This document shows positions 58,332 through 60,875 of a stretch of DNA of 64,000 nt, piece after piece. The notes beneath the pieces are model-generated. The model was not told where the DNA came from. It saw only the letters and a list, made by a program, of their open reading frames with translations, and did no database searches. Numbering within the stretch: position 1 is the first letter of the stretch; every line of letters starts with the position of its first letter. The stretch is from a virus, in the IMG/VR virus record IMGVR_UViG_3300050821_013777, positions 57,544 through 121,543 of that record; one strand, written 5' to 3'. A program made the position numbers and the translations under genes.

Positions 58332-58508
58332 CTAGAGCACGATTGCGTGGCGCTGCGGAGCGACGTACGCCTTCCCGACGGCCTGGAAGGCTGTCTCGCT
58401 ACGTCCTGCAGCTGGACCGACATCGACGATGAGCACCTGATCTTCGTCGTGGTTGATGATTGGCGTCAGCGCAGCCAGCATCTCGATTCGTTCCAGAGCT
58501 GACAGCTC
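58332..58508 (-). pseudogene. cas2: C-terminal half of a Cas2 (type I-G/I-U-like), 5'-truncated
   Basis: ELSALERIEMLAALTPIINHDEDQVLIVDVGPAAGRSETAFQAVGKAY matches the Cas2 C-terminal pattern as I recall it; the N-terminal YD strand is missing and is replaced by a half CRISPR repeat. Confidence 0.65.
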
Positions 58509-59109
58509 AACAATCGCTACGATCGAGGACCGACCTATCTTCGCGACGCTCAGCGAAGTGACCAACACAATCCGCCCCCTCTCACGATCGCCACACTAGA
58601 GTCGCGCCTCTAGCGGTTTACGATCACCGTCTGGTGACCACACAATCCGCCCCCTCTCACGATCGCCACCTCTATTCATGCTTGACACATATCGGTAGCC
58701 AGATAGTGACCACACAATCCGCTCCCTCTCACGATCGCCACTGACCAAGCCCCCGAGCGAAGTGGATTCCGTCCTCTTGTGACCACACAATCCGCCCCCT
58801 CTCACGATCGCCACGCGTGCCGCTCTGGGCGGTTACTCCTCGACTTGCCCGTGACCACACAATCCGCCCCCTCTCACGATCGCCACATTGGTTCTCGCGG
58901 ATATCACGGTCGCCCATCGAGTTCGTGACCACACAATCCGCCCCCCCTCACGATCGCCACAGCTAGAGGGTGTCACGGTCACGCACGCGCCCCGCACCCG
59001 GTGACCACACAATCCGCCCCCTCTCACGATCGCCACTTCGCAAGCCGTCTGGCGGCCCGGATGGGTCCCAGCTGTGACCACACAATCCGCCCCCTCTCAC
59101 GATCGCCAC
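58506..59109 (-). CRISPR. CRISPR array, 36-nt repeat GTGGCGATCGTGAGAGGGGGCGGATTGTGTGGTCAC; 8 full repeats, one half repeat, 8 spacers of 36-40 nt
   Basis: Repeats at 59074-59109, 59001-59036, 58925-58960, 58851-58886, 58779-58814, 58706-58741, 58634-58669, 58558-58594 (1-nt insertion) and a remnant at 58506-58520. Spacers are unique; degeneration at the low end implies minus-strand orientation. Confidence 0.97.
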
Positions 59110-60875
59110 CGCCCTCGGTGATCGCGCTGTGCTTTCGCGTGGTTGCGGTCCGGTTTGCGAGCGTCCCCAGTAGTACCATTGCCGCTGGCCCGTAAACCGG
59201 CGATTCCATTGGATCGTGTTCTGTTCACCACCTCGGCGCTCGTTGAGAGAGTTCGGATAGCGTGGCGGGGATGCCCCGCCTCCGGTTGGATCGCAGCTTG
59301 CGCCACGTCCGTCTCGATAACGGATTGCTCCGCTATCGCCCGGTTGTCAGGGCCGAGAGCGCTTATTGGGCTTTCGCCCTCATCGCCATCCGGGCTCGCC
59401 GACGAAGCCATACGGGCTTTCGCCGTCGAGTGATCCGATTCCGCTGACCGTTGAATGGGATTGCTCCCACTTTCCGACGGAGAGTCCCCCCGCCGGTCCC
59501 GCCCCGAGATGTTCTTCGGGACAAAATCTTCTGGATCGTACTGGCGCAGGTTCTCAGCCGAGTTCGCTTCTCGGTCGATTCGCGCTCCACACGCCGGACA
59601 CGAGAACCCTGAATAGCCTGGGTCGGTCTCGCGCACGCCTCCACAGTTTGAGCAGCGCCGCGTGCTTGGATAGTTCGACGGGGCGATGACAGTCTCGCCC
59701 CCGTTCCATTTCTGCTTGTACTCGATCTGGCGCCGCACCTCGAACATCGCCGCCTGCGCGACGCCTGGTGCGAGGGCGTTCCGCTTTCGCAGCTCGACGC
59801 CCTCCTTGCCCGCGCGCTGAATCATCCCCTGCACTCGCGAGTCACGCAGCACCAGTACACCTGCGTCGGCCTTGCGCACGATGCGTGTCGTCGCCTGGTG
59901 GATCGCATCCTTTCGCATATCAGCGATGCGCACATGGATCTTCTGTACTCGCTGTACGCATTCGTGCCAGCCGCGAGATTGGTCGCGTGACTTCTTTCCC
60001 TTCACGTGTCGTCGAGCCATCCGTCGCGACCAAAGCGCGAGCTTACGTTTCTCTTGCGCGAGATGCGGCAGGTCTCGAATCGGGACACCGACCATCCCCG
60101 ACTCGGTCACGACTGTGAGCACACGGACACCGACCTCGACGCCAGCACGAGCGAGCTGCGGGAAGTTCTCCTCGCGTTCCTCTTCGAGCTGCACGGCTGC
60201 ATACCAGTCGTCTGCGACCTTTCGAACAGCGAGACCGCGGTAGTTCGCGCCGAGTGGGATCTTGCCCCGATGGTCCCACGAGATTCGAATATCACCGACG
60301 CCTGCTACAGAGAGCCGATCCGACAACCCTTTCGAACCAACAGCAGCGAGCTTCACGGCCTGCGGCTGCGCAACACGGAAGCCCCTCCCCGAAGGCTCCT
60401 CTCGCCCGCGATACTGAGGCTCCCCGAGCTGACAGTGACCATCTCGCGCCGGCCGACACTCACCGTGATTTCCGCGCCCATGCGCTTTCAATTTGCGGAA
60501 GAAGTGCTTGTAGGCGTCGCCGAGATCGTGCAGTGCCTCGCGAACAACATAGGACGACACTTCTTTGAGCCAGGCGGTCGCCGGGTCTTTCTTGATCTGC
60601 GTGAGCTGCTTGTGCAGCGCCATCCATGAAGGCATCTCGCGAGCCGACTTCCACTTCAACAGCGCCTCGCCGAATGCACGAGTTGTTGGATCGGACACGA
60701 CGCTCAGTTGTGCGGCCCACGCATCACGCTCGGCACTCACTCTCGTGTACTGTGCGCGCCACGCAGTGAGCCCCCAGTTGTAAACAAATCTGGCCGCTCC
60801 TGTTTGGCGGGAGAGCCGCTTTCGCTGCTCCACAGTGGGATCGAGCTTGACTCGATAGGCGCGCAGGATCTTCAT
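59097..60875 (-). CDS. TnpB/Cas12f-like RNA-guided protein, predicted nuclease-dead
   Basis: RAYRVKLDPT..Q, ARFVYNWGL, AYKHFF, WYAAV; RuvC-I GVEVG, RuvC-II LRDSRV; IEYK, STRRCSNCG, CPACG; RuvC-III DREANSAENL. The stop codon lies inside the first repeat. Confidence 0.9.
   Translation of the reverse strand: MKILRAYRVKLDPTVEQRKRLSRQTGAARFVYNWGLTAWRAQYTRVSAERDAWAAQLSVVSDPTTRAFGEALLKWKSAREMPSWMALHKQLTQIKKDPATAWLKEVSSYVVREALHDLGDAYKHFFRKLKAHGRGNHGECRPARDGHCQLGEPQYRGREEPSGRGFRVAQPQAVKLAAVGSKGLSDRLSVAGVGDIRISWDHRGKIPLGANYRGLAVRKVADDWYAAVQLEEEREENFPQLARAGVEVGVRVLTVVTESGMVGVPIRDLPHLAQEKRKLALWSRRMARRHVKGKKSRDQSRGWHECVQRVQKIHVRIADMRKDAIHQATTRIVRKADAGVLVLRDSRVQGMIQRAGKEGVELRKRNALAPGVAQAAMFEVRRQIEYKQKWNGGETVIAPSNYPSTRRCSNCGGVRETDPGYSGFSCPACGARIDREANSAENLRQYDPEDFVPKNISGRDRRGDSPSESGSNPIQRSAESDHSTAKARMASSASPDGDEGESPISALGPDNRAIAEQSVIETDVAQAAIQPEAGHPRHAIRTLSTSAEVVNRTRSNGIAGLRASGNGTTGDARKPDRNHAKAQRDHRGRWRS
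59110..59520 (-). ncRNA. putative tracrRNA/omegaRNA-like scaffold with anti-repeat, overlapping the effector 3' end
   Basis: Anti-repeat at 59235-59265 (24/31 identities) and four GNRA-capped hairpins on the minus strand; boundaries approximate. Confidence 0.7.

Follow-up and report, generated by a model that had tools for sequence, protein, structure and literature searches.

What use would a large soil phage have for a TnpB-like protein in which the catalytic residues have been replaced, and whose gene runs straight into a CRISPR array? The question is raised by a locus on the minus strand of the 64,000-nucleotide (nt) stretch of viral DNA analysed here (the window; positions 57,544 to 121,543 of IMG/VR virus record IMGVR_UViG_3300050821_013777, with coordinates below counted within the window). 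The effector encoded there has the TnpB fold, carries Glu, Arg and Glu (E/R/E) in place of the catalytic Asp, Glu and Asp (the DED triad), and ends within the first repeat of the array. We consider it probable that the locus is a self-contained, phage-borne module of a type V-like kind, in which a TnpB-derived effector, a scaffold RNA and the array together bind DNA without cutting it.

The effector retains the TnpB fold and replaces its catalytic triad

The ORF listing of the window places the effector open reading frame (ORF) at 59097-60905 on the minus strand, giving 602 amino acids (aa) from a GTG. An ATG at 60873-60875 gives the 592-aa form, which is the database protein P0001, and homologues begin at the same ATG; the stop codon is a TGA at 59097-59099. 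The features of the protein are as follows.

59097-60875, minus strand: effector ORF with TnpB fold and E/R/E triad (ORF listing, Pfam, NCBIfam, HMMER, AlphaFold2 model, Foldseek)
59514-60875, minus strand: folded effector core, residues 1-454 of P0001, comprising WED, REC, RuvC and zinc-finger parts (AlphaFold2 predicted local distance difference test, pLDDT)
60135-60137, minus strand: RuvC-I position, Glu (GAG) for Asp (direct codon reading; invariant in family alignment A2)
59844-59846, minus strand: RuvC-II position, Arg (CGT) for Glu (direct codon reading; invariant in 44 of 44 clade members)
59568-59570, minus strand: RuvC-III position, Glu (GAA) for Asp (direct codon reading; E in 37 and D in 7 of 44 clade members)
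59589-59654, minus strand: intact CxxC...CxxC zinc finger of the TNB domain (Pfam PF07282; four invariant Cys)

Pfam recognises HTH_OrfB_IS605, OrfB_IS605 and Cas12f1-like_TNB domains in the effector, and the NCBIfam model guided_TnpB reaches 199.6 bits, almost twice its cut-off of 100, so that the TnpB domain set is present together with the corresponding fold (helix-turn-helix (HTH)/WED, REC, RuvC and zinc-finger TNB). In the AlphaFold2 model, pLDDT is mostly 80-95 through the core block, is lower (57-76) near residues 131-150, 231-270 and 341-380, and falls below 50 from residue 455 of P0001 onward. Foldseek ranks TnpB structures first for this model, the best match being ISDra2 TnpB (8h1j, E 2.5e-21), and a phmmer search of the PDB with the effector finds ISDra2 TnpB at E 3e-23.

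HMMER alignments to solved TnpBs set GVEVG on GVDVG, VLRD on VED and DRE on DRD, which are the catalytic D/E/D columns; in the 602-aa numbering the triad is E257, R354 and E446. The original prediction, made from the DNA letters, had described a full TnpB architecture with precisely these three substitutions and an intact zinc finger. Pfam, NCBIfam, HMMER and the fold all agree on the architecture, the codons GAG, CGT and GAA lie exactly where they had been placed, and all four cysteines are found.

The replaced triad is conserved in a single clade

A search of 5.8 billion proteins returned 77 matches, the first 29 of which are 400-660 aa long and 30-87% identical, followed by ordinary TnpBs at 25-30%; P0002-P0004 are close relatives, at 69-87%. 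In the 28-sequence family alignment (A2), the RuvC-I Glu and the RuvC-II Arg are invariant and RuvC-III is Glu or Asp; E247 is the only invariant acidic residue, while many arginines are invariant. The family also has its own insertion after RuvC-II and a conserved WxRRMxRR helix. When its profile was searched against 1.84 billion representative proteins, about 20 scored at least 344 bits and ordinary TnpBs followed at about 300 bits. No family member occurs in 50,697 deposited phage records (best match 27% identical), and a scan of genome contigs gave only ordinary TnpBs at 24-29% identity.

Across 227 proteins the triads are DED in 142, ERE in 33, ERD in 8, DRE in 3 and SRE in 1, with 40 other or fragmentary. 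We built a FastTree phylogeny from 220 of them, having dropped 7 with fewer than 300 aligned core residues. In this tree 44 proteins with Arg at RuvC-II (33 ERE, 7 ERD, 3 DRE and 1 SRE) form a single clade that contains nothing else (support 1.0, stem 0.48); two other proteins with Arg at RuvC-II are placed elsewhere. The clade's nearest neighbours are six DED proteins of 490-570 aa (P0094-P0096, P0100, P0190 and P0210), and this sister group has no close relative in viral contigs, where the best match is 39% identical. The triad replacement is conserved and is not a product of decay, which upholds the earlier suggestion of selection: Arg is invariant at RuvC-II throughout a fully supported clade of 44.

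Elsewhere in the protein set, TnpB neighbours of ordinary length (374-450 aa, P0098-P0221) carry His at RuvC-I, as HEE (9 proteins), HQE (5) and HED (2). Further triads of this kind are HQD (2), HDE (1) and HDK (1), and they recall the triads of Cas12m.

A CRISPR array begins at the effector stop codon

The 3' end of the effector gene runs into the following features.

58559-59109, minus strand: CRISPR array, 8 repeats of 36 nt with 7 internal spacers of 36-40 nt (repeat analysis)
58521-58558, minus strand: terminal spacer-like unit after the last, degenerate repeat (array reading)

The repeats are spaced 72-76 nt apart, the last of them degenerate with a 1-nt insertion, and the effector stop codon lies inside repeat 1. 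The array had been predicted to hold 8 spacers and to start at the stop codon. Its position stands: there are eight repeats, of which the first contains the stop, with seven internal spacers and the terminal unit. The exact window repeat is absent from the viral contig collection searched. Spacer 6 (58670-58705) has 15 of 36 bases G+C, lower than its neighbours, and in its reverse complement we read the hexamer TTGACA, similar to a -35 box.

DNA was available for five family loci, namely the window, L003, L004, L005 and L165; these five are the sample for the locus comparisons below. Only L003-L005 were family-like among the 80 loci retained from the locus search. A metagenome scan gave at least six loci, of which two duplicate L003 and L005, one is L165 and the others are L166-L168; L168 is 1 kb long, and no repeats were seen in L166 (2.2 kb) or L167 (1.9 kb). 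In all five family loci the array, of 3-16 repeats, starts no more than about 20 nt from the end of the ORF; the five have about 45 spacers between them, and in four the stop codon is a TGA inside the first repeat. Because a differently sequenced array follows a homologous gene in 5/5 loci, the association of gene and array that had been proposed from the window is conserved and is not due to chance. L165 additionally has a second array of 7 repeats (L165:1-443), of the same family and orientation, about 1.7 kb upstream of the effector and running off the contig end, so that arrays flank the effector on both sides.

A search for spacer targets, suggested with the original prediction, was run on the virus's own genome, on related phages and on deposited phage and plasmid collections, and gave no protospacer. 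The 7 spacers and the terminal unit matched only their own positions, apart from chance matches of 14-16 nt, in the whole 121.5-kb virus and the fetched loci. Comparison of the window array with the related phage records G001-G003, and of the L004 and L005 arrays with G000, gave only 14-24-nt matches with E of at least 0.075, and the window array had no match in the deposited phage or plasmid collections.

A structured RNA overlaps the effector tail and is predicted to pair with the repeats

Between the zinc-finger core and the array lie four further features.

59233-59508, minus strand: structured scaffold RNA, resembling a trans-activating CRISPR RNA (tracrRNA), overlapping the disordered C-terminal read-through (minimum free energy (MFE) against shuffles, G+C content, RNA contig)
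59233-59267, minus strand: anti-repeat, pairing with about 33 of 36 repeat positions (duplex energy against shuffles)
59110-59232, minus strand: leader between anti-repeat and repeat 1 (alignments A4 and A5)
59143-59163, minus strand: nucleotide motif CGCTCGCAAAYCG...CSCAA (invariant in 6 of 6 aligned loci)

The effector ORFs of the five loci continue for 120-145 codons past RuvC-III to the array, and in the window this tail of about 140 codons is predicted to be disordered. G+C content over codon positions 1, 2 and 3 is flat in the tail (e.g. 0.65/0.59/0.64) compared with the core (0.68/0.49/0.69). As RNA, by contrast with control segments of the coding core, the tail folds well: its MFE has a z score of -4.24, matched by 0 of 200 shuffles, against +1.82 for the window control, and the tails of 5/5 loci fold better than shuffles (z -2.4 to -5.5; coding-core controls -0.2 to +1.8). 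On the opposite strand the tail fold is weaker (z -2.28). A soil RNA library contains one 244-nt contig that lies on 59265-59508 with 0 differences, which is only a weak hint; the same RNA run covered nothing else between 58300 and 61000, an absence that carries no weight as evidence. A search of Rfam found nothing near any gathering score. Over its last ~140 codons the ORF reads through a gene for a structured RNA, and the peptide encoded there is predicted to be disordered; the original prediction did not have this feature.

The 3' end of this RNA is complementary to the repeats. In the window, the repeat and anti-repeat form a duplex of -47.4 kcal/mol, compared with -36.4 +/- 2.9 for shuffles. 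Within the 460 nt searched upstream of repeat 1 at each locus, the repeat finds its best pairing partner 160-172 nt away from repeat 1 in four of the five loci, and L005 has a weaker one in the same place. Repeats diverge considerably between loci, with 11-23 of 36 positions in common, and the anti-repeats follow them: cognate duplexes average -40.6 kcal/mol and non-cognate ones -28.7 (standard deviation 5.0). The related loci L005 and L165 are cross-compatible, an exception to this cognate preference. In unconstrained MFE folds of the segment from -175 to +36, the anti-repeat pairs with repeat 1 in 5/5 loci.

The leader contains the motif CGCTCGCAAAYCG...CSCAA 54 nt upstream of repeat 1, with one match in the window and none in 100 shuffles. 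Since the motif is read in different frames (..A-R-K-P.. in the window, ..R-S-Q-T.. in L003), the constraint acts on the nucleic acid and not on the protein. The same invariant motif stands at a similar distance from repeat 1 in the leader of a different viral contig, L188, which has no anti-repeat. That contig encodes (7831-9938, minus strand) a 648-aa Cas12m-like protein, P0228, which matches the Cas12m of PDB 23vw at E 5e-15; P0228 has Glu in its RuvC-I motif, is without the zinc finger or RuvC-III region, and is followed by at least 4 repeats of 36 nt.

We also considered that the gene might be a decaying TnpB remnant beside a chance tandem repeat, as the lack of a transposase and the single copy of the gene would allow. 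This explanation is very improbable given an intact frame, replacement residues that are invariant in a 44-member clade, and arrays in 5/5 loci whose repeats co-vary with their anti-repeats.

The module is carried by phages as a self-contained cassette

The virus record to which the window belongs is 121,543 bp long, has a completeness rating of 88% and carries genes for collagen-like tail fibres, DNA polymerase, helicases and thymidylate synthase. Profiles for Cas1, Cas2, Y1_Tnp and Resolvase gave 0 matches each across the 121.5-kb record, in which the effector gene is single-copy. The locus is thus virus-borne and lacks both tnpA and cas1, as had been claimed for it. Cas1 is likewise missing from three related phages, records G001-G003. 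The phage records that contain L004 (140 kb) and L005 (136 kb) each have a completeness rating of 100%, and one of the two shows terminal repeats.

We compared ORFs of at least 70 aa within 6 kb on either side of the effector. Over this range the effector is the sole gene that the window shares with any other locus and the sole gene common to all of them; L004 and L005 have some further genes in common, a few only, which occupy different relative positions. With the effector as the only common gene and the array conserved beside it, the module is therefore a self-contained cassette. This comparison also bears on whether the complex recruits a partner such as a sigma factor, recombinase or replication factor, in the manner of dCas12f-sigmaE or Cas12k. 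Nuclease-dead TnpB and Cas12 proteins of this kind have precedents (PMC13472631 and, for Cas12k, PMC12216341), but in the range compared the loci have nothing in common apart from the effector gene. We rate recruitment as quite improbable.

A promoter scan gave 0 sigma-70-like sites. The neighbours of the effector in the Atlas are Actinomycetota TnpBs, which serves only as a lead on the host; neither a family-level match nor the leader motif turned up in any of the 401 Actinomycetota genomes searched. A 78-aa ORF just past the array (58332-58568, minus strand) was tried as a Cas2 remnant and rejected: it has no Pfam match above noise, and the Cas2 profile is blank across the whole record. Farther away, the collagen-like tail-fibre proteins of 2026 aa (9131-15211, minus strand) and 450 aa (20577-21929, minus strand) are assigned to PHROG tail-fibre families, with matches as strong as 1e-135. 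Adjoining the larger of them is a 670-aa protein (16758-18770) that has weak PHROG matches to glycosyltransferase and methyltransferase.

Guided binding without cleavage as the proposed mechanism

The proposed module would consist of three parts on one strand: an effector whose folded core spans about 455 aa, a scaffold RNA (about 275 nt long, the anti-repeat at its 3' end) and, beyond a short conserved leader, the array. The scaffold would pair with repeat 1 in cis, as an omega-RNA does, and with the other repeats in trans, as a tracrRNA does, and this pairing would load the effector with 5-16 different guides. Owing to the Arg at RuvC-II and the absence of any other invariant acidic RuvC residue, complementary DNA would be bound and left uncut. 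Once bound, the complex would act as Cas12m and TldR do and prevent target DNA, whether of the host or of rival mobile elements, from being transcribed or replicated. With no Cas1 in the phages, any new spacers would have to be supplied by host adaptation proteins or arise through duplication.

These steps differ in standing. Cleavage has probably been lost, as judged from the sequence, because Arg occupies the position of the RuvC-II metal ligand and no other carboxylate is invariant. By analogy with Cas12m and TldR, the effector complex would bind DNA and block it. Repression of particular targets would be the presumed outcome; because no protospacer was found, repression and its target are unsupported. 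The original prediction of a nuclease-dead, multiplexed repressor is thus upheld in part.

Several observations count against such a mechanism. No spacer has a target in its own genome, in three related phages or in deposited phage and plasmid collections. At the RNA level there is one assembled contig, which informs on neither strand, ends nor transcription, and RNAalifold on a MAFFT alignment gave no consensus structure. The anti-repeat of L005 is weak, its duplex (-34.1 kcal/mol) falling below the L005/L165 cross pairs (-40.4 and -40.8). All five tails are open through to the first repeat, so that a translated, functional tail is possible. As to catalysis, the Glu residues at RuvC-I and RuvC-III are still carboxylates, and the 2023 TnpB/Cas12 census argues that conserved catalytic replacements often mark rearranged sites that are still active (PMC10691335).

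The last two points lead to a different proposal, in which the site is rearranged and E/R/E, perhaps aided by another residue, still supports cleavage of DNA or RNA; the effector would then be an active nuclease in ordinary phage interference against competing elements. The strict conservation of the replacement residues would fit this, as would Cas12r, a phage-borne and TnpB-derived effector that is active and targets integrative elements (bioRxiv 10.64898/2026.04.20.719267). However, Arg is unable to ligate the metal that the RuvC-II Glu binds, the family alignment offers no other invariant acidic residue in its place, and a milder change in Cas12m (HDD) already abolishes cleavage (PMC10442227). 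We consider an active nuclease unlikely, and continue to favour an effector that binds DNA without cutting it.

A more far-reaching scenario is possible, and we advance it tentatively. A phage-restricted lineage would have made the step from TnpB to CRISPR alone and lost cleavage, yielding the smallest multiplexed, RNA-guided DNA binder in nature, in which 5-16 guides and a tracrRNA written into the ORF tail serve a core of about 455 aa. Soil phages of 120-140 kb would employ it against host or rival-element genes, silencing them, and its arrays would grow via host adaptation machinery through the leader motif that also occurs in L188.

If the proposed mechanism is true, the family shows once more, and independently in sequence, a TnpB-like nuclease that has become an RNA-guided binder of DNA, here with a multi-spacer array and a tracrRNA and in phages. 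The case would bear on how often, and by what steps, type V systems arise and lose cleavage, and it gives a testable example of viral use of programmable silencing. As a compact scaffold for CRISPR interference (CRISPRi), a natural binder whose core has 455 aa and whose guides are encoded in an array is of practical interest too, and a leader motif common to an unrelated Cas12m-like phage locus offers an entry to spacer acquisition by arrays without Cas1.

Comparison with known systems

The family profile matches ISDra2 TnpB over its full length at 2e-56 (195 bits) and RdCas12n at 1e-43 (153 bits), followed by LaTranC at 5e-16, Cas12f at about 1e-12 and Cas12m at 5e-4 to 7e-6, the last in the zinc finger region only. 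ISDra2-type TnpB is thus the best match by sequence, profile and fold, and it resembles the window locus also in having a guide-RNA scaffold that overlaps the 3' end of the gene. It differs in its DED triad, its TnpA or serine recombinase and its mobile or multi-copy state, all of which are absent from the window locus. Moreover, TnpB uses a single omega-RNA with one guide, whereas the window has a structured RNA at the 3' end and then 8 repeat-spacer units. With type V CRISPR-Cas systems in general, the locus shares a single RuvC-fold effector beside an array, an arrangement conserved in 5/5 loci.

Cas12m and TldR are the parallels for the proposed activity. Cas12m is a small effector with a non-canonical RuvC triad (HEK/HQK, HDD, DED/NED or DND) and an array without cas1, cas2 or cas4; it binds and silences DNA without cutting it, and no tracrRNA is described (PMC10442227). 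The window family is alike in its small effector, its altered triad and its array without cas1, but Cas12m is guided by CRISPR RNA (crRNA) only, whereas the window family has an anti-repeat that co-varies with the repeat. Cas12m2 ranks only 19th among Foldseek matches of the effector model. TldR is a TnpB derivative with an inactivated RuvC, a phage-carried RNA-guided repressor that has lost the zinc finger (bioRxiv 10.1101/2023.11.30.569447). In contrast, the window family has an intact zinc finger, 5-16 spacers and no neighbour conserved across loci. That the lineage is separate from both, as the original prediction implied, agrees with the confinement of the Cas12m match to the zinc finger and with the retention of that finger, unlike in TldR.

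Three further systems combine TnpB ancestry or phage carriage with an array. TranC and type V-U systems, intermediates between TnpB and CRISPR, have TnpB-sized effectors and an array downstream, and their tracrRNA arose when an omega-RNA was split (bioRxiv 10.64898/2026.03.27.714800); those TranCs that have been characterised act as nucleases, unlike the proposed binder, and LaTranC matches the family profile at only 5e-16. Cas12r of Thermus Lalka phages is a TnpB-derived effector with a short array of 29-bp repeats and no adaptation genes, found in thermophiles, RuvC-dependent (D238A abolishes interference) and tracrRNA-independent (bioRxiv 10.64898/2026.04.20.719267). It resembles the window family in being phage-borne and TnpB-derived, with an array and then no adaptation genes, and differs from it in its active RuvC and lack of a tracrRNA. 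The myxophage protein MvCas12m (610 aa, 8 spacers) is reported to have an intact DED triad of D305, E463 and D555 (bioRxiv 10.64898/2026.09.14.751636).

The literature search, which left the group lists of the 2023 census and the TranC clades outside its range, brought up Cas12m, TldR, dCas12f-sigmaE, Cas12n, TranC, Cas12r and MvCas12m, and found no description of an E-R-E clade with arrays. There is nevertheless a substantial chance, if somewhat short of an even one, that the family is already catalogued without a name, as V-U24, V-U43, V-U44, a TranC clade or a deep branch of Cas12n; this would change its novelty and leave the mechanism unaffected. The census drew on JGI metagenomes, which contain several family members, and of the 40 V-U groups in its list, 15 have no members at NCBI and some show altered sites (PMC10691335); a disordered tail and an ORF-overlapping tracrRNA are also found in Cas12n (PMC12216341). 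However, V-U24 is altered at RuvC-I and linked to an HTH protein, while the present loci have no conserved neighbour among the ORFs compared, and V-U43 is grouped with Cas12f1 (V-U40-43), while the window family sits with typical TnpB (both groups as given in PMC10691335). RdCas12n, for its part, scores below ISDra2 TnpB (153 against 195 bits). The PADLOC model Cas12u4 does not discriminate: because ordinary TnpBs (276-305 bits) outscore family members (148-203 bits), it says nothing on membership. An independent TnpB-to-CRISPR lineage, which the original prediction had raised as a possibility, is plausible.

In design, the nearest system is Cas12n (V-N, formerly V-U4; RdCas12n, PDB 9j09, is an example), a compact TnpB-like effector with a disordered C-terminal tail, a tracrRNA region overlapping the ORF and a downstream array without adaptation genes (PMC12216341). 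The window locus has all of these, namely the disordered tail, the tracrRNA-like region overlapping the ORF and the array without adaptation genes. Unlike the window family, with its E/R/E triad and its phage carriers, Cas12n is an active DED nuclease of bacterial chromosomes. The anti-repeat in the scaffold RNA therefore marks the phage system as one of the tracrRNA type, closest in design to Cas12n.

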